A stretch of DNA of 64,000 bases from Candidatus Giovannonibacteria bacterium (GCA_016432405.1 CP066687.1:347040-411039); one strand, 5' to 3'. Positions 15,122 through 58,484 are shown, numbered from the stretch's first letter. Notes: generated from the sequence alone by a model not told the origin. Translations and numbers: made by a program.

Positions 15122-15925
15122 ATGAAAGCAAAAAATGTGCGGAGCACCGATGTTTTTCAGGTTATCGTTGTTATCGTTTTAACCCTGTTGGTCCTGTTCG
15201 GCGTTTCCTGTGTCCCTGCGGCAACGGTGAGAAGGACAAGCGTTTCCCAGCCCTTGCCTCCGGAACCCGCTCCTGGACAGCCGGGAGCTACGGCGCCGGC
15301 TTATGCTGGCAGGAAAGCCACTATTTCAATGGCGCCTGTGGAAGGCATTAATCTTATCCCGGTGAAGTGGGGCGGGGTAGGGGTTGCCCCGGAAATCAAT
15401 TCCGTATTTGAAAGCGCTCTTGCTGACACCGGACGCTTCCGGACCGTCAGCAGGGAAAAAATTAAAAATGTCCTTGCCGAGCAAGACCTGGCAACCGCAG
15501 GAAGAGTGCGACAAAGCACGGCTGTAAAAACCGGTGAGATCACGGGGTCAGACCTCATGATTATCGCAAAGATTACCGGCTTTGACCCGGGAGATTCAGG
15601 GGTAGGCGCGGCGGTCGGCGCTGTCGGCAGGACTTTGGGAGGTTGGATCGGCGCTTTGGGAGTATTGGCTGGAGGGATTAAAACTTCTAGTCTTGTTATG
15701 GACGTCCAGGTTATGGACGTCCGCACGTCGGAGATAGTTGTCTCCACGACCGTGGAGGGAAGTTCCGTTGACTGGTCAGCCGGAGGAGCGTTCGTTGGCC
15801 GTTCTCTTGGCGCGGGCGTTGCCGGGTGGAAGAACACGCCAATGGAGAAAAATCTGCGCGTTGTGGTGGAAAAAGCCGCCGCGGAGGTTTCCGCTAAACT
15901 TCCGCCGGAGTATTTCAAGCACTAG
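15122..15925 (+). CDS. CsgG-family (curli secretion-like) lipoprotein or periplasmic protein
   Basis: Signal peptide, then the CsgG-like core FESALADTGRFRTVSREKIKNVLAEQDLATAGRV…DLMIIAKITGFD…VMDVQVMDVRTSEIV. Confidence 0.5.
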   Translation: MKAKNVRSTDVFQVIVVIVLTLLVLFGVSCVPAATVRRTSVSQPLPPEPAPGQPGATAPAYAGRKATISMAPVEGINLIPVKWGGVGVAPEINSVFESALADTGRFRTVSREKIKNVLAEQDLATAGRVRQSTAVKTGEITGSDLMIIAKITGFDPGDSGVGAAVGAVGRTLGGWIGALGVLAGGIKTSSLVMDVQVMDVRTSEIVVSTTVEGSSVDWSAGGAFVGRSLGAGVAGWKNTPMEKNLRVVVEKAAAEVSAKLPPEYFKH

Positions 15926-36425: not shown

Positions 36426-36469
36426 ATTCGGCTATTATCGCAAAATTTTTTTTGTAGTACAATAGTGTA

Positions 36470-37798: not shown

Positions 37799-37860
37799 TT
37801 CACTTTTGATTCACCCCGCGGCTATTGCATTTAAGTATTTAAATATTTAAAATGTAGGTA

Positions 37861-39213: not shown

Positions 39214-39796
39214 TTATCTAGCCCAGCTTAGAAAATTATTTGAAAAGCTTCCTGGAATAGGTCCCCGGCAGGCCTCGCGTTTCATCTGGGCGCTTTTGGA
39301 TTTCGCGCCGGAAGAGAGAAAAAATTTGTCGGAACTCATCGGCGCTTTGGATAAAAATCTGGCCAGGTGCGCCGAATGTTTCAGGGCCGGCAAAACCAGC
39401 TTCTGCTCTTTTTGCGCGAAAGGCGGAAGCCGTGACCGCTCTAAAATCATGGTTGTGGAAAAAGACAGCGATTTGGTAAATATTGAAAAATCAAAAATTT
39501 ACGGCGGACTTTACCACGTTTTGGGGGGCGCGCTTGACCCGCTGGAGGATTCGGCGAGCGCGGCGCGCGAGCGCGTAAAAGCGCTCTACAAGCGCGCAGA
39601 GAGCGCGAAACCAAAAGAAATCATACTTGCGCTCTCTCCTACCAAGCTGGGCGAATTTACGGCAAGTTATATAACAAAAATTTTGGAGCCCTTGAAGATA
39701 AAAACCACCCGCCTTGCCCGCGGCCTCGCCACCGGAACTGACTTGGAATACGCCGACGAAGCGACTTTACGTCAGGCTCTTGACAACCGCAAGTAG
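39203..39796 (+). CDS. recR: Recombination protein RecR
   Basis: HhH LPGIGPRQASR, C4 zinc finger CAECFRAG…CSFC and a Toprim domain. Confidence 0.85.
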   Translation: MNSDYLAQLRKLFEKLPGIGPRQASRFIWALLDFAPEERKNLSELIGALDKNLARCAECFRAGKTSFCSFCAKGGSRDRSKIMVVEKDSDLVNIEKSKIYGGLYHVLGGALDPLEDSASAARERVKALYKRAESAKPKEIILALSPTKLGEFTASYITKILEPLKIKTTRLARGLATGTDLEYADEATLRQALDNRK

Positions 39797-40057
39797 CATC
39801 TCTTGGCGATGCCCTTTCTTTTTGCGGTATCTGGTTTTTGAGTGATATTTGAAAATAGTGACTTTGGGCAGCCGTTTTTCGCCGATGATTTCCGCCGTTA
39901 CTTTTTTGCCTGCGAGATAGGGTTTGCCAATTTCAATTTTATCGCCGTCCGCCAGAAGCAAGACCTTGTCAAAAACAGGATTTTTCTCTACTTGTATTTT
40001 TTGTCCTTCGAAAACAAGATATTGTTTGCCCCCGGTTTCTATTACCGCGATTTTCAT
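39767..40057 (-). CDS. rplU: 50S ribosomal protein L21
   Basis: MKIAVIETGGKQYLVFEGQKIQVEK. Confidence 0.85.
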   Translation of the reverse strand: MKIAVIETGGKQYLVFEGQKIQVEKNPVFDKVLLLADGDKIEIGKPYLAGKKVTAEIIGEKRLPKVTIFKYHSKTRYRKKKGHRQEMLLAVVKSLT

Positions 40058-40068
40058 ATTAATAAAGC

Positions 40069-41112
40069 TTACTCCAACTCTTCTGGCTTGTCCAGCAGCG
40101 CCGGCTCGTATTCGCCGCCACGGCCTGCTATCCGTAAAACGTCTTTGTCTATCTTTTTGAATTCTTTTGAGGCGCTGTTGTATGCACTTACCGTAAGTCC
40201 CAGATTTTTGCCGATTTTATTCATAAAGTCCTCGTAGCTTATGAGATGCTTCCCGAGTTCTTCCACCCGTTTTTTTATCTCTTTTGCCGATTCTTCAATT
40301 TGAAGTGCTTTAAGCCCCTGAAGCACGGTCTGCAGATACGCCAAAAACGAAGTCGGTGAGACGATAATCACTTTTTTTTCTTTGAAAGCGTATTCAATAA
40401 GGTCCCTGGTATTCACCTTAACTGCCCCCACCTGCGCTACCAGGAGGTCATAATAAATCGCCTCGTGAGGTATGAACATAAACGCGAATTCCATTGTCCC
40501 CTCCTCCGGCTTTACGTATTTTGAGGTTTCGTCAATCCGCATCTTAAGGTCGTTCCGGAACGCGCGCTCCAGCCGCTCTTTTTCCGCCGGGTCGCGCTCT
40601 TCGGCAAGCCGGTTATAATTTTCCAGCGAAAATTTTGAGTCAATGGGGATAATTTTGTTTTTGACAAAAACAACCGCGTCCACGATTGTCCCGTCGGGGA
40701 AGGGATACTGCATCTGGTAGCTTCCCGGAGGCAGGACGTTTTTAAGCAGAGTTTCAAGATAATATTCCCCCAGGACGCCGCGCTGTTTGGGGTTTTTTAA
40801 GATGTCCTGCAGGTTCTGGAGCTGGTCGGCGAAATTGACCACCTGCCGGTTTGTTTCGTCCAGCTTGGTGAGCCGCTCGGTGACATCGCGGATGATTTTT
40901 GCCGATTCGCCGAACTGGCTCTGGAGTATTTTGGTGGACTCTCCCATTTTCTGGTCCACTGCCCGCGCAAGCTCGTTTATCTGGTTCTGGAGCATCAGCA
41001 TCGCCTGCCCACCATCGCCTTCGCCGCTCCGTTTTTTCGCGAAAAAATAAAAAATAACCGCCCCTATGGCAATCCCCGCCAAAACCGCGGCCAATAAAAC
41101 AATCTCATTCAT
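40069..41112 (-). CDS. rmuC: DNA recombination protein RmuC
   Basis: N-terminal TM helix, long coiled-coil and the RmuC C-terminal domain (FAFMFIPHEAIYYDLL). Confidence 0.75.
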   Translation of the reverse strand: MNEIVLLAAVLAGIAIGAVIFYFFAKKRSGEGDGGQAMLMLQNQINELARAVDQKMGESTKILQSQFGESAKIIRDVTERLTKLDETNRQVVNFADQLQNLQDILKNPKQRGVLGEYYLETLLKNVLPPGSYQMQYPFPDGTIVDAVVFVKNKIIPIDSKFSLENYNRLAEERDPAEKERLERAFRNDLKMRIDETSKYVKPEEGTMEFAFMFIPHEAIYYDLLVAQVGAVKVNTRDLIEYAFKEKKVIIVSPTSFLAYLQTVLQGLKALQIEESAKEIKKRVEELGKHLISYEDFMNKIGKNLGLTVSAYNSASKEFKKIDKDVLRIAGRGGEYEPALLDKPEELE

Positions 41113-41141
41113 AAAACCAGTTTAGCATAATACATTTATTT

Positions 41142-41213
41142 TTGGACCCGGGGAGAATCGAACTCCCGTCTGCCGCGTGCAAAGCGGCCGTTCTGCCATT
41201 GGACTACGGGCCC
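41142..41213 (-). tRNA. tRNA-Ala (anticodon TGC)
   Basis: Hand fold: acceptor gggcccg/cgggtcc with the G3:U70 Ala identity pair, anticodon loop ttTGCac, T-loop ttcgatt. Confidence 0.8.
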
Positions 41214-41247
41214 TCGGCATAAAGAATACATTATTTATCGGGAAAAA

Positions 41248-41961
41248 TCAAAGCCGGAGGAGCGCTGCGGCGAAATTTCCGGCCAAGAGGCCGAAAATAA
41301 GCGGGTCCAAAGAAGTGAAATAACTTAAAAGCACGGCGAAGGCGCCGACAAGCACTCCGTAGGCGGCGGCGCTTTTTCGGGACGAAAAAGCGGAGGTAAC
41401 CGGTTCAATGAGCATTACTGCCATAAAAAAAATCAATGTCCCGTCAAAAAGCTGTGTGGAAAAGAGCCCCAAAGCATAAACCGCCAAAAACGGCAAAACA
41501 ATGCGCCATTTGTTTATTTTCCATACAATGAATACCCCGACCAGAAGCAGGGTGATTAAACTCAATGTGTTTGTGCCTGCCAAAGACGGCGCCCACCATG
41601 AAATTGACGGTGTAAAAAAATAAAGAATCCCCAGTGAAAACGCGGCTGGGTTGAAAATATGCCGTCCCTTATTCCAGTGGAGCGCCTGCTTGCCAAAAAC
41701 CGCCAAAAACGCCAATGCGGCCGCATAAGCGGCGTTTGCCGCCGGAGCGGCGATTAATCCTAAGATAAGGCCCGAAATCAGAGATGAGGTCGGGAAATAC
41801 CAAATTTTACGCTTTAAAAAAGTCCAGAGAAGGTCAAAAGCCGCGTAAAACGCAACGATTAAAAACCCCCACAAAATGCGTTCAGGTTCGCCCAAAGCGA
41901 AAGCGGCGAGGACCAGCATCAGCGCCAAACAGCCGACCATAAAGGGTTTGATCGGCGGCAT
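41248..41961 (-). CDS. Polytopic membrane protein (6-7 TM helices)
   Basis: The HIFNPAAF motif is reminiscent of NqrB/RnfD-type proteins but the protein is much shorter. Function uncertain. Confidence 0.35.
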   Translation of the reverse strand: MPPIKPFMVGCLALMLVLAAFALGEPERILWGFLIVAFYAAFDLLWTFLKRKIWYFPTSSLISGLILGLIAAPAANAAYAAALAFLAVFGKQALHWNKGRHIFNPAAFSLGILYFFTPSISWWAPSLAGTNTLSLITLLLVGVFIVWKINKWRIVLPFLAVYALGLFSTQLFDGTLIFFMAVMLIEPVTSAFSSRKSAAAYGVLVGAFAVLLSYFTSLDPLIFGLLAGNFAAALLRL

Positions 41962-41964
41962 GGA

Positions 41965-42147
41965 TTATTTTTTGCCTAAAATTCTGAACATTTTGGTGCC
42001 GCATTTCCCGCAAGTTCCTGTCATTGCCCGGCGCTGCACTCCTCCTTTTCCTTTCATCGCCACCTCTCTGGGGTTTGTCATATTGCGTTTGTCGCGGCAT
42101 TTTACGCAATATGCCTGAACCGGTTCGTTTTGCTGGTTTCCAGCCAT
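41965..42147 (-). CDS. Small zinc-ribbon protein (60 aa)
   Basis: CVKCRDK…CGKCGTK, two CxxC pairs. Confidence 0.35.
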   Translation of the reverse strand: MAGNQQNEPVQAYCVKCRDKRNMTNPREVAMKGKGGVQRRAMTGTCGKCGTKMFRILGKK

Positions 42148-42295
42148 AGTATTAAAAAACTGTTATAAATAAGGGTTTTTGGACCTTTACCGCCTTTGGC
42201 GCGGCTTTAAGCCATCTTAGCACAATTTACGAATAAATAAGCGTGAGTTATTCACAAGCGGCTTCAAAATTGCTAGGATTGAAATTAACAAATTT

Positions 42296-42501
42296 GGGTG
42301 TGTAGTTCAGTGGTAGAACGCTGTCCTGACCTGCCCGCCGAACAAACCAAAATTTTGGATGCGTAGTTCAGTGGTAGAACGCTGTCCTGATAAGACAGAG
42401 GTCGGAGGTTCGATCCCTCCCGCATCCATAATCCAAAATTTTGGGTCGGCTTTGGCAGGCGGGTAAGACAGAGGTCCCAGGTTCGATCCCTGGCACACCC
42501 A
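42296..42501 (+). tRNA. Split tRNA-Ile (GAT): exon 1 at 42296..42329, exon 2 at 42464..42501, with a 134-nt insert in the anticodon
   Basis: The exons join to a 72-nt cloverleaf (acceptor gggtgtg/cacaccc, T-stem ccagg/cctgg) with anticodon loop ctGA|Taa. The insert contains a second complete tRNA. Confidence 0.5.
42357..42428 (+). tRNA. tRNA-Ile (anticodon GAT), nested inside the split tRNA
   Basis: Hand fold: acceptor ggatgcg/cgcatcc, D-stem gttc/gaac, anticodon stem ctgtc/gacag, loop ctGATaa, T-arm ggagg-ttcgatc-cctcc. Confidence 0.85.
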
Positions 42502-43373
42502 TAAAATAAAAGCACTTTTTCTTTTGTCCCGGGTCTCGAATTGAAGCTTCCGAGACCAACGCTTCACGTCAAAAATGACGCGATCGACACTTTAATTGTT
42601 GGACGCTCCGACGAAAAGTCGGAGTTGAGTACAAAAATTAAAATTGAAACTCCACGACCAGCTTCCGCTAGCCGTGCCTTGTTACGACTTACTCCCTGTC
42701 ATCCCGCCATCCTTATTCCCCGCTAAGCGGGACTTTTGGGTCGGCGGGACTTCCTTGAGTTGACGGGCGGTGAGTACAAGACTCGAGAACGTATTCACCG
42801 CAGTATAGCTGACCTGCGATTACTAGCGATTCCGTCTTCATGCGCTCGAGTTGCAGAGCGCAATCCGAACTGGGCCGGCCTTTGGTGAGATTAGCTCCGC
42901 CTCGCGGCTTCGCGACTCATTGTGGACGGCATTGTAGCACGTGTGTAGCCCAGGGCATCAAAGGGCCATGCTGACTTGGCGTCATCCCCGCCTTCCTCCC
43001 CGCGGTGCGGGGCAGTCTCTTGTGACACTTGTAACACAAAATAGGGGTTGCGTTCGTTGCCCCACTTAAGGGAACAGCTCAAGCCACGAACTGACGACAG
43101 CCATGCAGCACCTGTCCCGACGTCCTTGTGAGACGCACGCCTTTCGGCGGGCTTATCGTCGGGATTTCAAGCCCTGGTGAGGTTTTTCGTTTAACATCGA
43201 ATTGAACCACATGCTCCACCGCTTGTGCGAGTCCCCGTCTATTCCTTTGAGTTTTAAACTTGCGTTCGTACTTCCCAGGCGGATGACTTAACGCGTTAGC
43301 TTCGCCACTCGAAGGGTCGATACTTCCAATGGCTAGTCATCATCGTTTAGGGCGTGGACTACAAGGGTATCTA

Positions 43374-44003
43374 CAAATTTGTTACAACTCAATTTTACTA
43401 ATCGGTGCTAATTTTTGGAGTCAAGATTGGTGCTTGACAAATAAATTTTTATATGCTATGCTTGATATGGAGGTGATTTATGCTTGTATGGATTTGTGAG
43501 AAAACCGGGCCGCAAGGTTTAGCCCGACTTGTCTACAAAGAGTTCCTCGCGTGGATGCTCCTTGCGTCTTTGCTTGGTCAGGTTTATCTTTTGCTCCGGT
43601 AGAACCGAGGATCAAGCGATAAGAGGGAATGGAATTAAACGCTATTCCCTCTTTTTTATTTCCAAAAATTAGCACCGATTTTTTCTTGAGTGAGCAGAAT
43701 ATTTCTATCTGCTTCTGCATATCGCTATGCAGTTCGGACTATATCATGTCGCCTTTTCGGCGACCTCGGCGTATAGTCTCTACGGGGTCATGTCCGAAAC
43801 TAAGTGTCGGACAGCGGACTTCCCTCGGGATTGTCCTCCGACGCTTCGGCCGGAGGGGTTTCCCCGATATAGCTCCGACGAAAACCTCTCGGTTTTGTCG
43901 GAGTCCGACTTCACTATTAAAATAAATAGTGCGTCGGACCAAGTTTTTTATCCTCGGAATTTATTCCGAGGGGACTAAGCTGCCTTGTAAACAGCATTTG
44001 TTA
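43374..44003 (-). other. Intron-like insertion in the 16S gene at the h24 loop (E. coli position about 788/789)
   Basis: It interrupts the universally conserved GGAT|TAGATACCC block. The 3' two-thirds is dense in hairpins (for example ctccgacgaaaacc/ggttttgtcggag and cctcggaa/ttccgagg). No LAGLIDADG, GIY-YIG or HNH ORF is present. Confidence 0.6.
43407..43673 (+). mobile_element. Cassette with terminal inverted repeats (gctaatttttgg … ccaaaaattagc) carrying promoter, sORF and terminator, embedded in the 16S insertion and antisense to the rRNA
   Basis: TTGACA at 43434-43439, 17-nt spacer, TATGCT. SD ggaggtg and an ATG at 43480 open a 40-codon ORF running to TAG at 43602. Terminator agagggaat…attccctct plus T6. 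Paralog at 56433..56795. Confidence 0.5.
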
Positions 44004-44715
44004 ATCCTTTTTGATCCCCACGCTTTCGTGTTTCAGGGTCAGGAATGCCCCAGCAAGCTGCCTTCGCCTTTGGTGTTCCCCACGATATCAACGGATTTCA
44101 CCCCTACACCGTGAGTTCCGCTTGCCTCTGGCATCCTCCTAGTTTTGCCGTTTCCCGCCCATCTCTCCGGTTAAGCCGGAGTTTTTAAAACGGGACTAAC
44201 AAAACCCCCTACACACCCTTTACGCCCAGTAAATCCGGATAACGCTCGGGCTCCTCGTATTACCGCGGCTGCTGGCACGAGGTTAGCAAGCCCTTATTCT
44301 TAGGGTACAGTCATTTTTTTCCTCCCTTAAAAAAGCAGTTTACGCCCCGAAGGGCTTCCTCCTGCACGCGGCGTCGCTCGATCAGGCTTTCGCCCATTGT
44401 CGAATATTCTCGGCTGCTGCCACCCGTAGGTGTATGGACCGTTCTCAGTTCCATTGGTGGGGGCCAAGCTCTCACTCCCCCTAGCCGTCGTCGCCTTGGT
44501 GGGCCATTACCCCGCCAACAAGCTGATAGCCCGCAGGCCTCTCCCAGAGCCAATCTAAGTGTTTTAATCTCACGATACTATCGGGAATTAGCTCCGCTTT
44601 CGCGGAGTTATGCCCGTCTCTGGGGTGAGTTCCTACGTGTTACTACCCCGTCTGCCACTATCCCGCACCTTTTATTGCTAAAGGGTGCGGGACCGTATGA
44701 CTTGCATGCCTTATC

Positions 44716-44755
<40 letters not shown>

Positions 44756-45058
44756 AATAAGAAAAATTTCTTGCGAAATTTTTCTACTACGGGACAAAAG
44801 AAAAAATGCTCAAAATTTAACTGACTTAATTTTTTGGTGCAATTTTCTAAATTTTCAAGGTTCTCTTTTTGGGTCAAAACTCCTCAACAGGGCTCGGAGT
44901 AAATAAACCCGCGATAAGACCCCAAAGATCCTATCGCGGATTTACTATGCTAATTTTTCAAAATAGATTCAAAATAGATTAAAAGGTATCTGTGCCTCCG
45001 GCCATCTCAATATAAGTTAACCTATAATAATTCCATTATACTCGCCTAAAAAACGCCG

Positions 45059-46291
45059 TCAAGGGTCTGTTTCCACAGCGTTTTCCTTGGCTATTTTGGC
45101 GTATTCCAGAGCGCTTTTCCTGATTTTTCGTTCCATTGTCTTGTAATTTATCTCAACCAGCCCAAACCGCTGCGTAAAACCGCTATCCCATTCAAAATTA
45201 TCCAAAAGCGACCAATAAAAATAACCCCTTACATCTACGCCCTCGGAAGTGGCTTGATAAATCCAGCGCAGCATTTCTTTAATAAACCTTTCTCTATAGA
45301 TATCTCCTGCGTCAGCTACGCCATTCTCGGTAATAAATATCGGTTTTCCATAACGCGCCGCGCGTTTCAAAAGATGATAAATTCCTTCCGGGTAAATCCA
45401 CCACCCAATATCGCTTACCCAATCATTAGGATTTTTTAATTCAATTGGCCCCCAACGGCCTTTGCCTAATTTCAAATTAATAACATCGGTATGGTAGTAC
45501 TGGATGCCAATAAAATCAAATTTATTGTTTAACGTGGCGAAAAATCTCCAATTTCTGACATAATCTAAAATTTTTATCAGTAACCAATTCCACGGCAAAT
45601 TTTTATATGGAGTCATGTGTACAGCGTAATTAGCCGTCCCAACTAATGCTCCGTCGTTAACTTTATGAATAATATCATAAGCTTGACGATGTGCCGCCAT
45701 TAAATTTTTAAATGCGCGATTAGCGCGGGTTAGGTTTTTTACTTGCGGCGGTCTGGAGCCCTGTATATACCCCAACCCCACAAAAGTCCCGGGCTCATTA
45801 AGAGGCATCCAATATGTGACACTTTTTAACGATCGTACGATTTTGTCGACATAGCGAGTGAAATCATCTATTGTTTTTTTGTTTTCCCAGCCGCCTTGTT
45901 TGGCAACCCAAACCGGCAAAGTCCAGTGCCAAAGCGTCACAAACGGCTCAATCCCCCGCTCGCGCAAAGCGTCAATCACTTCCTGATAATGCGCGATTTC
46001 TTTTTCATTAAATTTTCCTTCCTCCGGCTCAATCCGCGACCACTCTATTGAAAAGCGATGCGCGTTGTGGCCGAGCGATTTTGCAATATCAAAATCTTCG
46101 CGGAAACGGTTGTAATGGTCGCAGGCGCGACCGGATTCTTCGTGTCTAGTAACTTTCTCCCACTCCGACCAATCATTATGATTTCCTCCCTCAACTTGAT
46201 GCGCGGAGGTCGCCGCCCCCCAGAAAAACCCCGCAGGAAAAGTCAAACGACTTTCCAACGGGGCAAGATTTTTTGGAGATTGAAGTTTCAT
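45059..46291 (-). CDS. Beta-glucosidase, glycoside hydrolase family 1
   Basis: FPAGFFWGAATSAHQVEGG N-terminal signature, NEP acid/base and ITENG nucleophile. Confidence 0.85.
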   Translation of the reverse strand: MKLQSPKNLAPLESRLTFPAGFFWGAATSAHQVEGGNHNDWSEWEKVTRHEESGRACDHYNRFREDFDIAKSLGHNAHRFSIEWSRIEPEEGKFNEKEIAHYQEVIDALRERGIEPFVTLWHWTLPVWVAKQGGWENKKTIDDFTRYVDKIVRSLKSVTYWMPLNEPGTFVGLGYIQGSRPPQVKNLTRANRAFKNLMAAHRQAYDIIHKVNDGALVGTANYAVHMTPYKNLPWNWLLIKILDYVRNWRFFATLNNKFDFIGIQYYHTDVINLKLGKGRWGPIELKNPNDWVSDIGWWIYPEGIYHLLKRAARYGKPIFITENGVADAGDIYRERFIKEMLRWIYQATSEGVDVRGYFYWSLLDNFEWDSGFTQRFGLVEINYKTMERKIRKSALEYAKIAKENAVETDP

Positions 46292-47274
46292 TGCTTATTT
46301 ATTAAATCTTTTACGGTATTCCACATCTCCGGTTTCCCCTGTTTCTCTTTCATAAAATACCACCATTCCGCGCCCCAAAGATATGCTTTCGGGAAACCGG
46401 AGCGTTCGGCATAATCAATTATTTCATTAAAAATTTCCGGATTCATCACCCCATTATTCCACGGTTCGGCTTGGAGTTCTGAAATTAAAATCTGTTTCCC
46501 CAAAACACGCTCCGCCCACCATGCTTTAATTCTAAAATAATATGCCGGAACCAGCGAGTATTTTATTTCGCCGAACCATTTGTGGGTTACGTATCTATAG
46601 AGAGTTGTCCCAAAAATATCTGACTTCGCCGCAAGGTATGGCCAGGCGAATCCCAGCTCGCCGGAGTCGGTTAGAATAATTGAACGAGTATCAAGCGATT
46701 TAACTAATTTAATTTCTTGATTTAATAAAGAAATCGGAGTCATGCCGCACTCGCCAAACGGAAACAATGGTTCATTTTCAACCTGCCAAGCAATTATGGC
46801 AGAGCTCTTTTTATAATGTTCAACGGCGGTTTTTAAATAAGTTAAAAGACTTTCTTGATATCTTAGACGTCCGACGTCGATAATTAGACTATCGACGTCG
46901 GACGTCCATAGTTTCTGCGCCCACACGGGAATATGGCACTCCGGCCACCTTGGCGCTTTCCGCCCTACAACTAAAATAACCTTTGCGCCGCGCTTCTCTG
47001 CCTCCGTAATCTGCCAATCCAAATCATTAAAATCAAATTTGCCTTCTTCGGGCTCTGTCAAATCCCAATAAGCCACCAGCCGCAAATCTTTTACTTTCAA
47101 ATCATCTAAAATCGCCGAATAATTTTCGCGCCAATTTAACCCCAGTTCTTCCGAAAACTTTTGCGAGAAAGTAACGCCGTAGCTCAAATTTTGTTTTCTG
47201 GGCACGGAATAATTTACAAGCAAATATAAAATTATCAAAATGCCAACTAGCCAAAATAACGTTTTTATGGGCAT
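46288..47274 (-). CDS. Glycoside hydrolase, GH5-like (cellulase/mannanase family)
   Basis: WQVENEP catalytic acid/base motif and a signal peptide. The start was placed at MPIKTLFWLV. Confidence 0.6.
   Translation of the reverse strand: MPIKTLFWLVGILIILYLLVNYSVPRKQNLSYGVTFSQKFSEELGLNWRENYSAILDDLKVKDLRLVAYWDLTEPEEGKFDFNDLDWQITEAEKRGAKVILVVGRKAPRWPECHIPVWAQKLWTSDVDSLIIDVGRLRYQESLLTYLKTAVEHYKKSSAIIAWQVENEPLFPFGECGMTPISLLNQEIKLVKSLDTRSIILTDSGELGFAWPYLAAKSDIFGTTLYRYVTHKWFGEIKYSLVPAYYFRIKAWWAERVLGKQILISELQAEPWNNGVMNPEIFNEIIDYAERSGFPKAYLWGAEWWYFMKEKQGKPEMWNTVKDLINKQ
46866..46907. repeat. Palindromic element gacgtccgacgtcgata-attagac-tatcgacgtcggacgtc inside the GH5-like gene
   Basis: 17-bp perfect inverted repeat. 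It encodes WTSDVDSLIIDVGRL in-frame. Related copies are at 54689..54720 and 58054..58085. Confidence 0.75.
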
Positions 47275-48921: not shown

Positions 48922-49591
48922 CCACTGAGTTTTTGCCAAGCTTAGATTTTTTGACCGGCAAGCCCAGCGTTTTTTGAAGCTTGTCGGAGAAATTTTCTCT
49001 TGCCGCAACTCCACCGCCAATGATAACTTTCTCTGTTTTATAGGTCTCAATAATGCCTTTCAGCTTTTTTGCCAAAAATATTGCGAGTTCGTCGTCATTA
49101 CGGCTATCCCTGATTTCTTTGTACTTTTTTTCCCAGCGCGCCGGGTACTCAAAACTTTTTATTTTTAGAATCTTGCCGTCCTTACTTATCGCGCGGCCGA
49201 TCCCCGTCCCAAGAGTCAGAAAAAGCGTCGTCCGCTTGTCTCTATGTTCGGCCCGCGCGAAACACCTCGCATCGTGGTCAACCTTTACCCCCACACCAAA
49301 CTTTTTGGTGTGGGGGTTTACTTTTGCGCCGCCAAAAAACTCGGCGAAATTAAAATTTCGAATATAGGGCATATTTGTCGCTGAAACAAAAACAGCGCCC
49401 TTTATTCTTCCGGGCACAGCGATACCGATTTTAGAATGGCCCCCAAACAACTTTCTTAGAATTTTTTTAAATCCGCCCAAATTTTTCGGCGTCTTCGCCT
49501 CTCGCGCCGCCAAAACCTTTTTGCCGTCCCACAAAACTGCCCGTATTTTGGACCCGCCGATGTCCAATCCAACAATTATTTTTTTCCTCAT
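48893..49591 (-). CDS. ASKHA-fold sugar kinase (ROK/glucokinase-like), short form
   Basis: N-terminal GLDIGGSKIR. Confidence 0.55.
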   Translation of the reverse strand: MRKKIIVGLDIGGSKIRAVLWDGKKVLAAREAKTPKNLGGFKKILRKLFGGHSKIGIAVPGRIKGAVFVSATNMPYIRNFNFAEFFGGAKVNPHTKKFGVGVKVDHDARCFARAEHRDKRTTLFLTLGTGIGRAISKDGKILKIKSFEYPARWEKKYKEIRDSRNDDELAIFLAKKLKGIIETYKTEKVIIGGGVAARENFSDKLQKTLGLPVKKSKLGKNSVAIGAAMLFR

Positions 49592-50702: not shown

Positions 50703-51359
50703 CTATTTTTTAAACACTATAAATTTAAAACCGGTAAAATTCCAGATAAGCACGGCGATGTTGGCGATAAATTTCGCGTAATTCAGCCATTTTGACGACC
50801 CGACCGTCTCAATGATTGAAGCCGGCGCGTAAGTGGTGAGAACCACAATCAACACGCTGTTTATAATAAGTCCGCCAACGCCAACGGCGAAAAATTTTGG
50901 GAAGTCATGAAACAAGCTGATTTTGTCCGAAACTAAGTTTCGGTCAGTAAGTGACCGAAACTTAGTTTCGGACGTTTCGGACGAAAAAACCCAGAGTTTG
51001 TTCCACAAGTATCCGTTTATCACCGCAATTAAAAATCCGGGCGCATTGACCCAGCCGACAATTATGCCGGCGGTCACGCCTGTAAGATAACTTGTCAGGT
51101 TGAGAACCGCAAAGTCAATCGCCGTGGAAAGAAACCCCGCGGCGGCGTAGCGGCCGAATTGCGAAAAAAACGGTTTCACTCGCGCCCCGAGAAAGTCCCC
51201 GAACCAAACCCCCGCCGCCCAGAGAACCGGCAGTAAAACCAAAGCGGCAAGATTTTGGTACGGGAAAGAAATTTTTAAAAAATACAAAATTGCCAGCGTA
51301 AGCGCCCCGGTCAAAATTCCCGCAACCGCCCCGATCCAATAATCTTTTTTGATAATCAT
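50703..51359 (-). CDS. GtrA-like membrane protein
   Basis: 4-TM GtrA-type topology. It contains an in-frame palindromic insertion. Confidence 0.5.
   Translation of the reverse strand: MIIKKDYWIGAVAGILTGALTLAILYFLKISFPYQNLAALVLLPVLWAAGVWFGDFLGARVKPFFSQFGRYAAAGFLSTAIDFAVLNLTSYLTGVTAGIIVGWVNAPGFLIAVINGYLWNKLWVFSSETSETKFRSLTDRNLVSDKISLFHDFPKFFAVGVGGLIINSVLIVVLTTYAPASIIETVGSSKWLNYAKFIANIAVLIWNFTGFKFIVFKK
50925..50973. repeat. Dimeric palindromic element gtccgaaactaagtttcggtc-agtaag-tgaccgaaacttagtttcggac inside the GtrA-like gene
   Basis: Encodes SETKFRSLTDRNLVSD on the minus strand. Same family as 37424..37460. Confidence 0.75.
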
Positions 51360-53770
51360 AATAATGCCTGATGCCTCCTTCTAATTTCCTCCTCTACTTC
51401 CTCGCGCGGGCGCGAGTATTTGGAGCGCGAGAGCTCTTTTATGTAATCGGCTGTATCCCCGCGGCCGCTTTCCGGAGGCAGAGTTTTTATATTAAAGGGC
51501 TTTGAGGTCTGGCCGTCAATCAGCAATTTGAGATAAGCGCTGAAATTATCAATGTTTAAAAGGTCCTCCGCGGAAAACACCGGCTGGAATTGTTTTTCCA
51601 TATACTCGGCGTCGTCGGAGCCGATTCTAAAAGAGCAGATGGAGCCGACGTTTCCGAAAATCGCCTTTTTAATGTCCTCGTCAAGCTGGCCTATGAACTG
51701 GTGCGCAACTATCATGTTCAATTTATATTTTCTCGCCTCGGAAAGGATTGTGGCAATGGATTTTGTGGTCACGTTTTGAAACTCGTCAATATAGAGGTAA
51801 AAATCGCCGCGCTCTGCCTCCGGTCTGTCCACTCTTGATAGCGAGGCCATTAAAATCTTGCTAACTATAATGAGCCCCAAAAGATTTGAATTGAGCTCGC
51901 CGAGTTTCCCCTTGGATAAATTCAAAAGAAGGATTTTTTTCTGGTCCATAACGCCGCGCAGATTAAAGGCGGACTTTTGCTGGGCGATTATCGGGCGCAT
52001 AATGTCATTGGATAAAAATCCGTCAAACTTGCTCACAACGTAAGTCGCCATGTTGGCAATGGATTGCTCTCCCGAGGCGCGCTCCGCAATCTGCTTCCAA
52101 AAGGTCTCCACGACTATATTTTTGGAGCGCGAGAGCTTAAAGTCGCGGAAGGATTTATCCGCGAAAACCCTCTGGATTTCCAAAAGCGTGTTGCCGCTCT
52201 CCAGGTCTTCCATAACCAGCATCGCCGCGTTTCTGAAGTATTGCTCAAACATCGGCCCTCCGGCAACCGACATATTAAAAAGCTTGTTAAAAATTTCCAA
52301 AAGCTCGTTGACGATTAAACTTTTCTGCTCGGGATAGCGGGGGTCAAACTCCAGCATGTTGAGGCCCATCGGGCGCGCAACATCCCCGGGGTCAAAATAA
52401 ATTACGTCATTTGCGCGCTCTGCAGGAATTAAAGGCAGGATTTTTTCAATAAGGTCGCCGTGCGGGTCCACAATTGCCACCCCCTCGCCGGCCAAAATGT
52501 CCTGACTGACCATGTTTTGCATAAGCGCGGATTTTCCGGTGCCCGTCTGCCCAATGATGTAAAAATGCCTTCTGCGGTCGTCTTTTTTTAGCCGCACTTC
52601 GCGCCCCTCGCCCCGGAATGAGCTTTTGCCGAGCAAAACGCCCTCTTTCGGCAAATTGACCGGCGGAGCGGACTCTTTCGCTTTTAAGGTGCGCACGGAG
52701 GGAGCGGCCTTTTTCAGATATGGAAAATGGTAAATGCTCGCGATTTCCTCAACGTTTAAAATTATTTTGGCTTCTTCGTCAAAAAGGCGGAAAGAAAAAC
52801 GCTCAACCAATTTTCTTAAACGTTTTCCACCAAGCTCTTTAATTTTCAGGCCGTTGCCCTCCGGATTTTCATACTGCAAAAAAGCCCCGGCAAGCCCTTT
52901 CAAAATCTTATCAGCCGAGAGCGCGCTCTCGGCTGAGGCAAGAATGCGTATATTGCATTCAAACGCCGGCTTTGAGGCCTTTTCTTCAAAAAGCTTTGCC
53001 GTTTCTTCGTCGTAACTTGCGCCGCTTTTTTCTTTACCGATCTTTGACGGGGAAAAAATTTTCAAAAACGCTTTCCAAAAACCGCTTTTGCCCAGCGCTT
53101 CTTTTTTACTCTCCCCTTCTTTCATTTTTTTTGCCGCCCCATGCGCGCGGCTTTTGATATTTTCCCCTCCGACTCTCAAAATTATCTGTAAAGCCGCGCC
53201 CTCGCCGAATTCTTTTATGCTGGAGAGAGCCGAAGTTATCGTATCCAACTGATCGCTTCCGGATTTCTGATAGGTTTTTATGGGCAGCAGTTCTGATTCG
53301 GCGGAAAACGCGGAGGCGCCGGCTGTTGCCCCCTCTAAATTGAAAATATTATAATCAGGCCTTCTTTCTATTTTGGCTTCCGGAAAGGCGCCGTGAAGTT
53401 GATTTTGAAGCAGAATTTCATATGCTCTCGGGAAAGCTATGTAGAAAAATATCTCGCTCCCGCGGTTGTGCGCGGCGATCTCAAACGCAAACTGCGGATT
53501 TCCTAAAATTTTGCCGGCGATTCCTCTTCTTTGAACTCCGCCCAAGCCGGTGAGAAAATTTTCCATTTTTAAAATAAAATCCTTCGCCGCCTGCGCCTCC
53601 CCCGCTTTTTCGCCTCTTGCCTCCGGGATACTGACCAGATAAAGTCCCAGGCCAAGCCCGGCGCTTACCCCACTGGAGCGCCTTTCCCTTTTTATCCAAA
53701 TTACGGAAAAAAGCCAGAGCCAGAGCGCCAGCGTTATAAATAAAAAAAGGTAGAAAGCGGCCGGATTCAT
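51356..53770 (-). CDS. VirD4/TraG/TraD-like type IV coupling-protein-family ATPase (two TM helices plus AAA-like domain)
   Basis: Walker A YIIGQTGTGKSAL, IVDPHGDL and Walker B FYLYIDEFQN, then …IVAHQFIGQLDED. 804 aa. Confidence 0.6.
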   Translation of the reverse strand: MNPAAFYLFLFITLALWLWLFSVIWIKRERRSSGVSAGLGLGLYLVSIPEARGEKAGEAQAAKDFILKMENFLTGLGGVQRRGIAGKILGNPQFAFEIAAHNRGSEIFFYIAFPRAYEILLQNQLHGAFPEAKIERRPDYNIFNLEGATAGASAFSAESELLPIKTYQKSGSDQLDTITSALSSIKEFGEGAALQIILRVGGENIKSRAHGAAKKMKEGESKKEALGKSGFWKAFLKIFSPSKIGKEKSGASYDEETAKLFEEKASKPAFECNIRILASAESALSADKILKGLAGAFLQYENPEGNGLKIKELGGKRLRKLVERFSFRLFDEEAKIILNVEEIASIYHFPYLKKAAPSVRTLKAKESAPPVNLPKEGVLLGKSSFRGEGREVRLKKDDRRRHFYIIGQTGTGKSALMQNMVSQDILAGEGVAIVDPHGDLIEKILPLIPAERANDVIYFDPGDVARPMGLNMLEFDPRYPEQKSLIVNELLEIFNKLFNMSVAGGPMFEQYFRNAAMLVMEDLESGNTLLEIQRVFADKSFRDFKLSRSKNIVVETFWKQIAERASGEQSIANMATYVVSKFDGFLSNDIMRPIIAQQKSAFNLRGVMDQKKILLLNLSKGKLGELNSNLLGLIIVSKILMASLSRVDRPEAERGDFYLYIDEFQNVTTKSIATILSEARKYKLNMIVAHQFIGQLDEDIKKAIFGNVGSICSFRIGSDDAEYMEKQFQPVFSAEDLLNIDNFSAYLKLLIDGQTSKPFNIKTLPPESGRGDTADYIKELSRSKYSRPREEVEEEIRRRHQALL

Positions 53771-54198
53771 TTAATTTTTCTGGACTCTAAAAGTTTTTCG
53801 TAATATCTGTCCGCCAGCGTGTCGTGAAATTCATCCAGAATATGCGGATTTTTCAACGCCTGCGCGACTTTCATGGCCGAAGCCATCCCTTTGGTGAGCG
53901 CGAGCTCCACCAGAGAATCAATTATTTCGGCGTGCTCTTTTTCCTGCAGCTCATACGCTTTTTGCTTAGCATCATCGTCCGCAAGCTGGCTTTGCTGAAG
54001 CGGTGTTGGCGATTTTGACCCGGCGGCGTCTTTTATGACTTCTCTAAAAATCTCTTTTTCGTGCTTTTGCTCACCGCTTCCGGCCAGCTCCCTTTTTTTG
54101 GCCTCCAGCCGCTCTTCAAGCAATTTTATTTCCTCGTGTAACCATGATTCAGGCATAATGAAATAATAACATGTTATAATAATTTTATGAAAAACCAC
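53767..54198 (-). CDS. Hypothetical coiled-coil protein, translationally coupled upstream of the VirD4-like gene
   Basis: ORF with ATGA overlap. Charged and helical. Confidence 0.3.
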   Translation of the reverse strand: MVFHKIIITCYYFIMPESWLHEEIKLLEERLEAKKRELAGSGEQKHEKEIFREVIKDAAGSKSPTPLQQSQLADDDAKQKAYELQEKEHAEIIDSLVELALTKGMASAMKVAQALKNPHILDEFHDTLADRYYEKLLESRKIK

Positions 54199-55782
54199 TG
54201 GGTTTTAGTGTTGTTGATATTGGCCTTGGCAGCGTTTTTCCGTTTTTGGGATTTAAAGAGCGCCCCGCCGGGGCTTTGGGCGGATGAGGCAGTAAATGGC
54301 GTCAACGCGCTGCGGGTTATTGAAACTAATCCGCCAGCTGGCGGATGGAAAGTTTTTTATCCGGAAAATTTCGGCCGCGAAGGCCTTTTTATAAACATTC
54401 AATCCGTTTTTGTAAAATCATTCGGCACCGAGCCGTGGGTATTGCGCTTGCCGTCGGCGATATTTGGAGTATTAACTATTTTAGGACTATATTTAATGAC
54501 TTTGGAATTGTTTAGGAATTCGAAATTAGAAATTGAAAATTCTCATGGCGAGTTCATTGCTTTGGCATCATCATTATTTCTCGCCACGAGCTTTTGGCAT
54601 ATTAATTTCTCGCGGATAGGATTCCGCGCGATTATGGCGCCGTTTTTTTTGGTGTGGAGTTTTTATTTTTTACTAAAAGGAACGTCGAGACGTCCGACGT
54701 CCTATGGACGTCGGACGTCCATAATTATTCTCGCCGGCTTCACTTTCGGCCTTGGCTTCCATTCATATATCGCTTATCGCATCGCGCCGGTAATTGCGCT
54801 GTTACCGCTGTGGAAATTTTACAAAAACTGGAAAAATCAGGAAGCCGGACTTCCACTTGGAAGTCCGGCTTCCAAGTACTGCGCTCCGTGCTTTATTGGA
54901 CTTTTTATTTTCGCCGCTTTCATCGCCTCGCTCCCCCTTCTTTGGTATTACGTCCAAAATCCGCAGGATTTTTTGGGGCGGACGGCGGCGATTTCAATTT
55001 TTGACGCTCCCAGCCCGCTCGGACAATTTTCAGAAAATCTTATAAAAACGCTGGGGATGTTCAATATCGCTGGCGATTTCAACTGGCGGCACAATCTCAC
55101 CGGCTCTCCGCAGCTTTGGTGGCCAGTGGGAATTTTATTTTTAATCGGCATATGGAAATCGCTTAAAAAATTACAGTGGCCATATAGTTTTGTGTTGCTG
55201 TGGTTTATAACGATGCTTTTGCCGGTTGCCGTTTCCAATGAATCTTTGCCGCACGCGCTCCGCGCGATTATTTTAATTCCGCCAGCGATGATTTTCGCCG
55301 CCTTGGGGCTAAATTGGCTTTGGGAAAATGTCAAGCCGCAGTTCAGGATTTTTATTTATATTTTTTTGGCCACCGCCGTGCTTCAGGCCTACAGCCAGTA
55401 TTTTTTACACTGGGCGCCGAATTTCAACGTTCATCAGGCATTTCAGACAGAAATTACCGAAAAGGCACGCTGGCTTAAGGCAGAGCCCAAAGACATAAAA
55501 AAATACGTCGTTACCGACGCGGTTGACCAAGCGGACACAACCGGCACGCCGATGTCCTTTCAGCCGATAGTTTTTATCACGGACACCTTTTATTCGCAGA
55601 AACAGGCGGAGAAAAATATTTATTATATTTCTTTAAAGAATCTTGATTACGCGGATTGTTCCCAAAAATGCGAGTTTCTGCCCGTGGAATACCGCCCAGC
55701 TATTTTTAAAACAATCAAACAAAAAATCCCGGGCTTGCGCTTAGACGCCTCTTCGGGATTTGTGGTATTAAAAAATTATTGA
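54187..55782 (+). CDS. GT39/ArnT-family glycosyltransferase (PMT_2-like)
   Basis: N-terminal WADEAVNGVNALRVIE and more than 10 TM helices. Paralog of 56820..58484. Confidence 0.65.
   Translation: MKNHWVLVLLILALAAFFRFWDLKSAPPGLWADEAVNGVNALRVIETNPPAGGWKVFYPENFGREGLFINIQSVFVKSFGTEPWVLRLPSAIFGVLTILGLYLMTLELFRNSKLEIENSHGEFIALASSLFLATSFWHINFSRIGFRAIMAPFFLVWSFYFLLKGTSRRPTSYGRRTSIIILAGFTFGLGFHSYIAYRIAPVIALLPLWKFYKNWKNQEAGLPLGSPASKYCAPCFIGLFIFAAFIASLPLLWYYVQNPQDFLGRTAAISIFDAPSPLGQFSENLIKTLGMFNIAGDFNWRHNLTGSPQLWWPVGILFLIGIWKSLKKLQWPYSFVLLWFITMLLPVAVSNESLPHALRAIILIPPAMIFAALGLNWLWENVKPQFRIFIYIFLATAVLQAYSQYFLHWAPNFNVHQAFQTEITEKARWLKAEPKDIKKYVVTDAVDQADTTGTPMSFQPIVFITDTFYSQKQAEKNIYYISLKNLDYADCSQKCEFLPVEYRPAIFKTIKQKIPGLRLDASSGFVVLKNY
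54689..54720. repeat. Palindromic element gacgtccgacgtcc-tat-ggacgtcggacgtc, in-frame (encodes RRPTSYGRRTS)
   Basis: Identical core to 58054..58085. Same family as 46866..46907. A 7-bp repeat lies upstream at 54521..54542. Confidence 0.75.
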
Positions 55783-56819: not shown

Positions 56820-58484
56820 ATGGATAAATATGCCAATGTTTTAGCGGTTTTGATGCTTGTAGCGATGTTCGGGCTGATGCTTGCTTCCAGTTGGAACGAT
56901 TCGGCGATTTTTGACGAGGTGGCGCATATCGGCGCGGGTTATACTTATCTTAAATATCTGGACGGGCGGTTAAATCCGGAGCACCCGCCGCTTCTCAAGA
57001 GCATGGCCGCTTTGCCGCTTTTGTTTTTATCCGCCAGTGGGCGGATTAAAGAAAATATCGCGGCGCAGCCATTTTGGACTATGGAGAATGTAAATGACCG
57101 CCAATGGGCCACGGGTAATTATCTTTTATATGAGGCGGGCAATGACGCGGACCGGATTCTTTTCTGGTCGCGCCTGCCGATGATTCTGCTTACGATATTG
57201 TTTGGCTGGATATTATTTTCTTGGGTAAAAAAGCGCTATGGCGCAGCGGTGGGGTTGCTTACTTTGTTTTTCTTCGCTGTCTCCCCCACTTTTTTGGCGC
57301 ATGGCCGATACGTAACAACAGACGTCGGCGCCGCGCTCGGATTTTTCCTGGGAATAATTTTCTTTTTGCGGTTTTTGGAACGGCAAGATTTAAAGTCAGC
57401 AACTTGGCTCGGTGTAGTGTTGGGGCTTGTCTTGCTTTTTAAATTCTCTTTAGTTTTATTACTCCCGATTTATTTAATAATTTTAATATTTAAAAATTGG
57501 AATTTGATTGAAAATTGGAAATTGAAAATTAGAAATTTAGCGTTAGCCACCATTATCGCGCTCGCTGTAATTTACGCCGCGTATATTCCGCAAATCTGGG
57601 GTTATCCGCATGACCAGCAGATGAAAGACGCGCGCTACATCCTTGCCGGCTATCAGTATCCCTCTTTGGCCAAGCTGGATTTTTGGCTGACCGAACAAAC
57701 GCTCACAAGGCCGCTTGGGCTTTACCTGCAAGGATTTTTGATGGTTGCGCGGCGCACCGCCGGTGGGAACACGGCCTATTTTATGGGTGAAATTTCATCA
57801 AAAGGATGGTGGTCCTATTTTCCGGTTCTGGCAATCACAAAAGAACAGCTGGGGTTTTATATTCTGGCGATAATTGCTTTATTTACGGCGATTAAGAATC
57901 GGGCTCGGCCGGATTTTAATTCGCTCGCGGCTATTATTTTTATAATTTTTTACTGGGCAAGCTCAATTTTAAATCCTCTTAACATCGGCGTACGGCATGT
58001 TCTGCCGACTTTCCCTTTTCTTTACTTTTTGGTTGCGAAAGGCTTAATTTCAGGACGTCCGACGTCCTATGGACGTCGGACGTCCATATATTTAATTAGC
58101 ACTTGGATGATTATAGAAACACTTTTTGCTTTCCCATATTATCTTTCTTACTACAACATTTTGGGCGGCGGCGAAGAAAACGGATATAAAATCGCAACCG
58201 ATTCAAACTACGACTGGGGGCAAGACCTAAAACGTTTGACGTTTTGGGTGAAAGAAAACAATCTAGATAAAATTTATCTTGATTATTTCGGAGGCGGCTC
58301 GCCTAAATATTATCTGGGCGATAAATTTGAGCCGTGGTGGCCAGCAAAGGGCGCACCTCCCCGGGAAAGCTATTTCGCGATCTCTATAAATAGTTTAGCC
58401 GGGTCGGAGAATTTATATCCTTGGCTGAAAAGTAAAAACCTCGCTGCGCGCGCCGGCAGTTCAATCTTAATCTACAGGTTTTAA
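56820..58484 (+). CDS. GT39/ArnT-family glycosyltransferase, paralog
   Basis: WNDSAIFDEVAHIGAGYTYL and more than 10 TM helices. It carries the 7-bp repeat (57492..57537) and the palindrome (58054..58085) at positions equivalent to those in its paralog. Confidence 0.65.
   Translation: MDKYANVLAVLMLVAMFGLMLASSWNDSAIFDEVAHIGAGYTYLKYLDGRLNPEHPPLLKSMAALPLLFLSASGRIKENIAAQPFWTMENVNDRQWATGNYLLYEAGNDADRILFWSRLPMILLTILFGWILFSWVKKRYGAAVGLLTLFFFAVSPTFLAHGRYVTTDVGAALGFFLGIIFFLRFLERQDLKSATWLGVVLGLVLLFKFSLVLLLPIYLIILIFKNWNLIENWKLKIRNLALATIIALAVIYAAYIPQIWGYPHDQQMKDARYILAGYQYPSLAKLDFWLTEQTLTRPLGLYLQGFLMVARRTAGGNTAYFMGEISSKGWWSYFPVLAITKEQLGFYILAIIALFTAIKNRARPDFNSLAAIIFIIFYWASSILNPLNIGVRHVLPTFPFLYFLVAKGLISGRPTSYGRRTSIYLISTWMIIETLFAFPYYLSYYNILGGGEENGYKIATDSNYDWGQDLKRLTFWVKENNLDKIYLDYFGGGSPKYYLGDKFEPWWPAKGAPPRESYFAISINSLAGSENLYPWLKSKNLAARAGSSILIYRF

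Follow-up and report, generated by a model that had tools for sequence, protein, structure and literature searches.

A family of small GACGTC-type hairpin repeats lying in-frame within protein genes of Candidate Phyla Radiation bacteria

We analysed a stretch of 64,000 nucleotides from a Candidatus Giovannonibacteria bacterium (GCA_016432405.1 CP066687.1:347040-411039; the whole stretch is called the window), in which palindromes built from GACGTC hexamers lie within three protein genes. The palindromes proved to be copies of a repeat that is dispersed through the Candidate Phyla Radiation (CPR, or Patescibacteria) and is situated in-frame within ordinary and often essential genes. Identical copies occupy non-homologous sites, orthologous genes differ in whether they carry a copy, and differences between arms are compensatory. 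Because its core occurs in at least 35 other CPR assemblies, mostly in-frame within essential genes, the repeat resembles a tiny form of selfish DNA tolerated by proteins. The explanation that we favour, and hold to be probable, is a family of ultra-small hairpin repeats extending across the CPR, whose members are propagated by copying and persist in protein loops that tolerate them.

Structure of the repeat and its copies in the window

The original prediction had reported palindromes in three genes, and all were present at those places, in-frame within three long open reading frames (ORFs; Table 1). Copy 1 is a longer version, with perfect arms of 17 nt each (46866-46882 and 46890-46906) and a 7-nt loop, exactly as had been described, while copies 2 and 3 have arms of 14 and 15 nt, respectively, around a TAT loop. 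These two had been given as perfect palindromes of 32 bp; perfect palindromes are indeed found there, but they measure 31 nt in copy 2 (54689-54719) and 33 nt in copy 3 (58053-58085). Because CATA continues both, copies 2 and 3 are identical over 35 nt (54689-54723 and 58054-58088). Translation confirmed that RPTSYGRRTS is encoded twice and WTSDVDSLIIDVGRL once, the latter on the minus strand.

Each arm of the repeat contains a 13-mer, GACGTC-S-GACGTC, which is palindromic around its central base and is nearly two GACGTCC heptamers; the inverted 13-mers GACGTC-C-GACGTC and GACGTC-G-GACGTC correspond to (GACGTCC)2 and (GGACGTC)2. With up to one mismatch allowed, the 13-mer GACGTCCGACGTC gave 12 matches on both strands of the window, against 0.01 expected, and none of 100 shuffled sequences scored as high. 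The window holds six 13-mers in its 64 kb, every one of them part of a doublet, and solo 13-mers account for 3 of the 149 in the collected loci. The spacer between the 13-mers ranges from 3 to 30 nt and most copies are 31-55 nt long, with a version of about 95 nt in one genome. The window elements have predicted single-stranded DNA folds of -18 to -21 kcal/mol (z-scores between -5.4 and -8.6). Direct reading of the sequence shows no stop codon in either 13-mer in any of the six frames, and in 98 non-redundant low-GC copies, among the matches listed, a mean of 4.6 of the six frames were open through the entire element.

Pairing continues beyond the 13-mers. In the same 98 copies the long hairpin is extended outward by at least one base pair in 78 and by at least three in 24, and a single 13-mer is wrapped in its own hairpin of at least three pairs in 22-24 copies per side; the chance level for such pairs, by our own estimate and not by computation, is about 2%. 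One locus (L017) has a private stem of 11 bp, ctccatcttcg-13mer-cgaagatggag, and another (L057) has two distinct private stems. These extra stem bases are genome-specific, being (C)TATG/CATA(G) in the genome of the window, where the stem is complete at just one 13-mer and the element is therefore slightly asymmetric. Spacers and flanking sequences vary freely among copies.

The host of copy 1 had been called GH5-like, which holds in a loose sense only: it matches GH42 and GH10 models of clan GH-A. Copy 1 is located in a hypervariable loop behind the invariant RWPECHIPxWA motif of this hydrolase. In an AlphaFold (AF2) model with a mean predicted local distance difference test score of 89.3, the insert lies between a barrel strand and the next helix and scores lowest of all stretches (blocks at 66 and 73). 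Copies 2 and 3 lie in two PMT_2/GT39 glycosyltransferases, GT39#1 and GT39#2, at positions previously taken to be equivalent. Copy 2, however, is at about residue 167 of GT39#1, within the PMT_2 domain (71-202), and copy 3 is at about residue 410 of GT39#2, well past that domain (118-250), and by alignment the sites are non-homologous. A BLASTP comparison of the two proteins returned the insert region as the sole strong match, the remainder being weakly similar. Database entries 100% identical to the hydrolase and to GT39#2 come from one Candidatus Giovannonibacteria metagenome-assembled genome (MAG). The protein collection offers no such entry for GT39#1, whose best match there is at 71%; the source annotation may differ in its start or call a pseudogene.

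Distribution, coding context and arm co-evolution

The exact doublet was found at 66 loci in a scan of reference genomes, with one genome per species. Fifty-four of these come from 35 assemblies with CPR or Patescibacteria labels, each holding one to eight exact doublets; carriers are Giovannoni-, Moran-, Uhr-, Ryan-, Wolfe-, Jorgensen-, Nomura-, Portnoy-, Staskawicz-, Terry- and Vogelbacteria, Paceibacterota and Saccharibacteria. Among the other reference loci, six belong to unclassified 'bacterium' MAGs and six have non-CPR labels, two of the latter being high-GC hexamer runs of a different nature. Longer identities were also met. Two loci (L001 and L039) share 47 identical nt within different genes, and the Saccharibacteria MAG CAYHFP01 carries a palindromic repeat of about 95 nt five times over, centred on the GACGTC doublet and ending in T-runs on both sides (Table 1). 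These five copies are intergenic and look like a MITE (a miniature transposable element of the inverted-repeat type) or a bidirectional terminator.

Many further doublets lie on low-GC metagenome contigs. The scan of these took in all four polarities, and its figures are those among the matches listed: about 33 pairs are inverted C..G, about 14 are inverted G..C and 7 are direct, so that the quasi-palindromic 13-mers are inversely paired in 47 of 54 low-GC pairs. A fixed C..G polarity, suggested by 69 against 2 matches in the first scan, was discarded because that scan itself had demanded C..G. The C..C and G..G matches were not kept as family members, being mostly tandem (GACGTCC)n arrays on high-GC contigs and a separate phenomenon. 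On such contigs (GC 0.68-0.71) about four to five tandem GACGTCC heptamers, with TCGTCC before them, and inverted GGACGTC heptamers, with GGACGA after them, enclose 70-150 nt of non-conserved sequence (Table 1); these arrays are a different use of the heptamer.

Coding context was determined for the 98 low-GC copies, with an open frame defined as one of at least 150 codons. Such frames contain 79 of the 98 copies (81%). The three frames are used in the ratio 33:23:23, giving peptides of the types RPTS.., TSDV.. and DVRR..; since all three are used, selection for one particular peptide is ruled out. The host genes are ordinary and often essential, and include class I and class II aminoacyl-tRNA synthetases, TsaD, SMC/RecN, the beta subunit of RNA polymerase, NAD-dependent DNA ligase, TGT, LepA, trigger factor and Mur ligases. 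The reading frames are intact, and as judged from sequence the copies are predicted to be read through as extra residues.

Comparison of orthologs revealed that copies are present in some and absent from others. Copy 2 is absent from the syntenic relative L070 and from the 12 nearest GT39#1 orthologs (63-71% identity), which carry MRK-QKEW where the window has TSRRPTSYGRRTS. Copy 3 is absent from 39 of 40 GT39#2 orthologs, five of which are closer to the window protein (73-81%) than is the carrier, P0127 on L192 (71% amino acid identity), which holds the copy at the same codons with one substitution. Copy 1 is found at the same place in two orthologs (P0006 on L197, 72%; P0010 on L067, 64%), and short orthologs of the hydrolase are without it. 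A candidate remnant in P0003 (KMSDVSYDDS) was rejected, its DNA being suggestive and not convincing. The original prediction had preferred repeat insertion to a conserved protein motif, a preference borne out by the lack of the insert in the nearest orthologs and by the use of all three frames; the sole ortholog that keeps RPTSYGRRTS has near-identical DNA. Its suggestion that insertion was recent applies to copy 2 only, and fails for copies 1 and 3, which are common to orthologs of 64-72% identity.

Where orthologous or same-site copies differ in their arms, the differences come as complementary pairs. In alignments of three to six sequences, a model with one long hairpin had 96.7% of cells paired and four pairs changed on both sides, a covariation score reached by none of 500 shuffles; a model with two small hairpins fared worse, with 93.1% paired and two double-changed pairs. 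For the trio of copies at the hydrolase site, the long hairpin was 98.1% paired with two compensatory pairs, compared with 85.7% for the small hairpins. One uncompensated arm change was detected, in L192.

In other species, all three loops are occupied by different palindrome variants. The copy-2 site is taken in L192 by a 75-nt element based on AAACC-S-GGTTT and in L200 by GAAGTC-C-GACTTC ... GAAGTC-G-GACTTC. The hydrolase loop holds two GAAGTC-C-GACTTC units in L069 and, in L198 (P0022), AACATC-C-GATGTT ... AACATC-G-GATGTT, a compensated variant of the unit. The 32-nt spacer of the L198 doublet nests a second G+C-rich palindrome, CCGCCTGCC..GGGCAGG. GT39#1 itself carries a further variant (Table 1) with the double-unit build and the CACTTG spacer seen in GACGTC-type copies elsewhere; it is also found in L070, and at the orthologous second GT39#1 site L199 has GACGTCGGACGTC-CACTTG-GACGTCCGACGTC. 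Since the same loops accommodate variant units, the GACGTC family is one variant of a wider set, which shares a T-C-S-G-A centre and the double-unit architecture. TCSGA showed no general enrichment (146 occurrences versus 154 expected). Of the five indels that separate GT39#2 orthologs and are 9 nt or longer, four are hairpins, and the window contains 19 perfect hairpins (stem of at least 10, loop of at most 10) versus 1.4 in shuffles, with 11-12 of 16 loci within long ORFs.

Origin and maintenance of the repeat

From the pattern of copies we infer that a DNA hairpin is the substrate of a copy-and-paste process. The mobilising activity could be a hairpin-recognising enzyme supplied in trans, or host repair and recombination. 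Copies would land genome-wide and the survivors would be found mainly where harm is small; those that preserve the frame in variable surface or membrane loops would, by read-through, add 10-15 residues to the protein. The arms of an inserted copy might be kept complementary by arm-to-arm correction, that is, template switching within the palindrome, or by selection on the hairpin, and elements would decay or be deleted in some lineages. Quasi-palindrome correction by template switching is known from E. coli. More tentatively, one can envisage an undescribed pan-Patescibacteria class of mobile hairpins of about 31-46 nt, with TCSGA-centred co-varying units (GACGTC, GAAGTC, AACATC), a putative hairpin-specific mover, arm-to-arm correction, insertion into essential genes and responsibility for much CPR indel variation; this broader proposal is possible, though we would not call it likely.

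Several observations weigh against spread by copying. About 840 kb of flanking DNA, with 1178 ORFs, yielded no recurrent transposase or other mobilising gene, and the doublet, in either polarity, had no match in IMG/VR viral contigs and hence no candidate viral vector there. The exact 13-mers persist between very distant lineages, and also between orthologs with diverged flanks, a conservation that a selected function would explain as well as repeated reinvasion would; the copy 3 block is identical between the window and L192 at 53 of 54 nt, compared with 74.7% for the whole genes. Copy number is modest, with three per 64 kb in the window and 1-8 exact doublets per reference MAG. A comparison of filled with empty sites points to the replacement of about 17-21 nt and not to a clean insertion, and no target-site duplication or common target could be defined at the edges of identical copies, where the flanks are too diverged to fix exact boundaries. 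The small size of the alignments behind the covariation tests is to be counted here as well.

The main alternative is that the doublet is a functional cis-element, bound by a conserved CPR protein or serving as its hairpin signal (parS/matS-like, a DUS/USS-like uptake signal, or an mRNA hairpin), and that its place within genes only reflects the near-absence of intergenic space in CPR genomes. A core identical across distant CPR classes, orthologous copies far better conserved than their host genes and arms that co-vary are all in keeping with such a role, as are the location of the three window copies within 12 kb adjoining the GC-skew switch at about 33-44 kb and, in one genome, intergenic copies followed by T-runs that resemble bidirectional terminators. 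A signal of this kind is difficult to reconcile, however, with patchiness among close orthologs, with an exact doublet in only 35 CPR-labelled reference assemblies, or with a density of about one per 20 kb, which is roughly ten-fold below that of known uptake sequences. Moreover, in other species these loops are filled by unrelated palindromes, spacers and flanks vary freely, and orientation is unrelated to local GC skew. We regard a cis-element as unlikely. There is a smaller chance that the palindromes grew locally without any mobility, by template switching at fragile or tolerant sites, with the GACGTC copies arising convergently from a palindromic hexamer as seed. Many unrelated palindromic indels do separate orthologs, variable flanking inverted repeats lengthen single 13-mers (by 11 bp in L017), and arm differences between orthologous or same-site copies arise as complementary pairs. 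Local growth, however, cannot yield identical sequences of 35, 47 and 95 nt at non-homologous sites of one genome, nor can it explain why about 100 unrelated sites, in many lineages, have the same 26 specified bases. Local template switching may nevertheless account for the upkeep of perfect arms after insertion.

The identical 35-mer in two genes of one Pfam family had raised the possibility of gene conversion between the paralogs or, alternatively, of a conserved RPTSYGRRTS peptide motif. Since the two GT39 sites are non-homologous, one inside and one outside the PMT_2 domain, conversion between the paralogs is excluded, and a motif is refuted by the alignments, in which nearly all orthologs are without the peptide; in addition, the third copy belongs to a hydrolase unrelated to the GT39 proteins and is read in another frame, and frame use is even across the family. 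Taken together, these two explanations are very improbable. Library artefacts such as hairpin chimeras can also give perfect palindromes, but assemblies made independently, by different projects and with different assemblers (the window, MFHD01, Logan SRR22388014 and Logan SRR22388039), agree on the codon position of the element, and their copies differ by substitutions with reading frames intact; the chance of an assembly or sequencing artefact is negligible.

Candidate genes in the flanking DNA were also considered. ORF clustering gave only housekeeping or syntenic groups, and two clusters without a Pfam match turned out to be the GT39#2 orthologs and their downstream neighbour, so that no associated gene was retained. 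IS-like features were not seen within the 8-kb stretches around copies. In MFHD01, a Giovannonibacteria MAG, an ORF of 88 aa with a GIY-YIG domain (L192, 10214-10480) is separated by about 2.4 kb from the ortholog of copy 3; it was met once only, and no link to the elements can therefore be claimed.

Known systems and further features of the window

No relevant match to Rfam covariance models was obtained at gathering or E-value thresholds, and a literature search found no paper with the 13-mer or describing such elements in CPR or Patescibacteria. In behaviour, the closest analogue appears to be the Rickettsia palindromic elements (RPEs), reportedly described by Ogata et al. in 2000: like the CPR element they would be palindromic insertions lying in-frame in protein genes, read through as extra peptide in tolerant regions and patchy among orthologs. 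RPEs are mentioned in PMC3767692. They measure about 100-150 bp, form families RPE-1 to RPE-8 and occur in Rickettsia only, whereas the CPR element is 31-55 nt long and present in many CPR classes; there is no sequence relationship, and the double quasi-palindrome with its heptamer build is specific to the CPR family. In architecture, the nearest match seems to be the doublets (REPINs) of repetitive extragenic palindromic (REP) sequences, which are said to be mobilised by RAYT transposases in work attributed to Bertels and Rainey in 2011 and to Nunvar in 2010. Like the CPR element, a REPIN has two short inverted palindromic units a few bases apart that form a longer hairpin, the supposed replicative unit, and falls into genome-specific sub-families. 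REP and REPIN elements are the subject of a review (PMC3184786). REPs are extragenic, whereas 81% of CPR copies lie within ORFs and all three window copies are intragenic; REPs have a conserved GTAG head and a species-specific core, whereas the CPR element is without a GTAG head and its core is conserved across classes; and REPs have RAYT, a Y1 HUH transposase, while no RAYT or Y1 was found near any CPR copy among the flanking ORFs examined.

In size and shape, the closest elements appear to be mitochondrial hairpin repeats: the G+C clusters in yeast var1, the double-hairpin elements of Allomyces and the repetitive hairpin elements (RHEs) of sponges (PMC2800124). They share with the CPR element a length of tens of nucleotides, G+C-rich hairpins or double hairpins in A+T-richer compact genomes, an occasional location inside coding or rRNA genes, and mobility inferred from presence and absence with no dedicated enzyme known; they are organellar and unrelated in sequence, however, while the CPR family is free-bacterial and common to very distant lineages. 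Perfect inverted repeats of up to 284 bp in translated mitochondrial genes of Nematomorpha (PMC6649704) likewise combine a hairpin with coding sequence, but their arms encode conserved protein regions, whereas those of the CPR repeats, a dispersed family, add residues to variable loops. MITEs have terminal inverted repeats and target-site duplications; the CPR element is inverted repeat throughout, and no direct duplication was seen beside its diverged flanks. The small dispersed repeats (SDRs) of Nostoc, reportedly described by Elhai et al. in 2008, resemble it as mobile repeats on a scale of 21-27 nt with a conserved hairpin, compensatory changes, tandem heptamers and insertions into conserved sequence, but they are cyanobacterial, mostly non-coding and different in sequence and architecture. 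The DNA uptake sequences (DUS) of Neisseria and uptake signal sequences (USS) of Pasteurellaceae occur about once per kb, mostly as single copies. These are also short, clade-conserved motifs found in all frames inside genes, with inverted pairs possible, whereas the CPR element occurs about once per 20 kb and nearly always as a doublet, and most CPR genomes are without an exact copy. The new repeats, best regarded as selfish palindromes tolerated within genes, are unusual in their tiny size, in arms free of stop codons in six frames and in their spread across CPR classes.

CPR genomes are thought to be streamlined and repeat-poor; here, a repeat family and several sister families lie in-frame in essential genes, and palindromic insertions dominate the length differences between the orthologs compared. 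If confirmed genome-wide, the family would be a bacterial counterpart to the Rickettsia RPEs and the mitochondrial hairpin elements, would explain many 'CPR-specific insertions' in protein alignments and structure predictions, and would offer a sequence handle for finding a hairpin-handling enzyme or repair pathway and for tracing DNA exchange between CPR lineages. Should the wider mobile class prove real, it would be a major, overlooked shaper of CPR proteomes.

Table 1. Repeat copies, host genes and other features (window positions, except for the last two rows, which refer to collected loci).
Feature	Position	Strand	Sequence or structure	Translation or remark
Copy 1, long form	46866..46911		GACGTCCGACGTC-GATA-attagac-TATC-GACGTCGGACGTC, then CATAG	WTSDVDSLIIDVGRL
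Copy 2, short form	54689..54723		(GACGTCC)2-TAT-(GGACGTC)2, then CATA	RRPTSYGRRTS (plus strand)
Copy 3, short form	58053..58088		G-(GACGTCC)2-TAT-(GGACGTC)2-C, then ATA	GRPTSYGRRTS
Element-spanning peptides				RPTSYGRRTS, TSDVDSLIIDVGR
GH42-like glycoside hydrolase, TIM barrel (host gene 1)	46288..47274	-		carries copy 1
PMT_2/GT39 glycosyltransferase #1 (host gene 2)	54187..55782	+		carries copy 2, the 54840 variant and the TCCGCCAGCTGGCGGA palindrome
PMT_2/GT39 glycosyltransferase #2 (host gene 3)	56820..58484	+		carries copy 3
Variant in GT39#1	54840..54873		GGAAGCCGGACTTCC-ACTT-GGAAGTCCGGCTTCC, alternatively GAAGCCGGACTTC-CACTTG-GAAGTCCGGCTTC	QEAGLPLGSPAS
Possible degenerate relative	15697..15735	+	TATGGACGTCC twice in direct order (15697-15722), then GCACGTCGGA	VMDVQVMDVRTSE
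Double-palindrome family	37412-37464; 50925-50973		TGACCGAAACT(W)AGTTTCGGTCA twice, inverted, 5-nt spacer	LTETKFRSITDRNLVSG; SETKFRSLTDRNLVSD
TCCGCC-N3/4-GGCGGA family	1529-1562 (doublet); 19885-19900; 54330-54345; 57030-57045		TCCGCCAGCTGGCGGA (54330 copy)	NPPAGG (54330 copy)
Hairpin in ROK-like gene	49287-49317		ACCCCCACACCAAA-ctt-TTTGGTGTGGGGGT	
Hairpin in gene for 804-aa ATPase	52911-52936		TCAGCCGAGAGCG|CGCTCTCGGCTGA	
Inverted repeat upstream of dnaK region (about 12 kb)	10060-10088		GTTAGCACTCT-N7-AGAGTGCTAAC	
16S rRNA gene	42640-44761	-		2122 nt
Repeats of about 95 nt in CAYHFP01	L005 6040; L019 984; L031 5740; L036 1930; L042 5013			
High-GC heptamer arrays	L120 4645-4850; L139 1057-1195; L173 1303-1442; L177 897-1028; L187 8226-8359; L190 8146-8276			

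The possible degenerate relative lies in-frame within an ORF of 267 aa, and a search of the window for TATGGACGTCC-type motifs gave 7 matches against 0.28 expected. Outside the elements the window has 13 GACGTC sites, compared with 5.9 expected; the site is thus not avoided, and the idea of an AatII-type restriction-modification system recognising it finds no support here, although restriction-modification genes were sought only within the window and not systematically.

Other palindromes were also noted. The two members of the double-palindrome family are in-frame in unrelated ORFs and have the architecture of the GACGTC family. The TCCGCC-N3/4-GGCGGA motif gave 3 matches versus 0.04 expected, in addition to the doublet at 1529, and its copy at 54330 is a 12-nt in-frame insertion that is not in the L070 ortholog. 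The inverted repeat at 10060-10088 fits the consensus of the CIRCE heat-shock operator, TTAGCACTC-N9-GAGTGCTAA, and is probably a regulatory site outside the repeat families.

At 2122 nt, compared with a model of 1533 positions, the 16S rRNA gene must contain about 590 nt of inserted sequence; 16S genes of such length are typical of the CPR. A replication-strand bias was considered, with TATGGACGTCC on the presumed leading strand at four of four window loci, and was rejected, as 24 asymmetric copies elsewhere were unrelated to GC skew. In the window, GC skew turns from positive to negative at about 33000-44000, with a peak in cumulative skew near 40 kb; the orientation of protein and rRNA genes fits converging forks, and the region may be that of the replication terminus.

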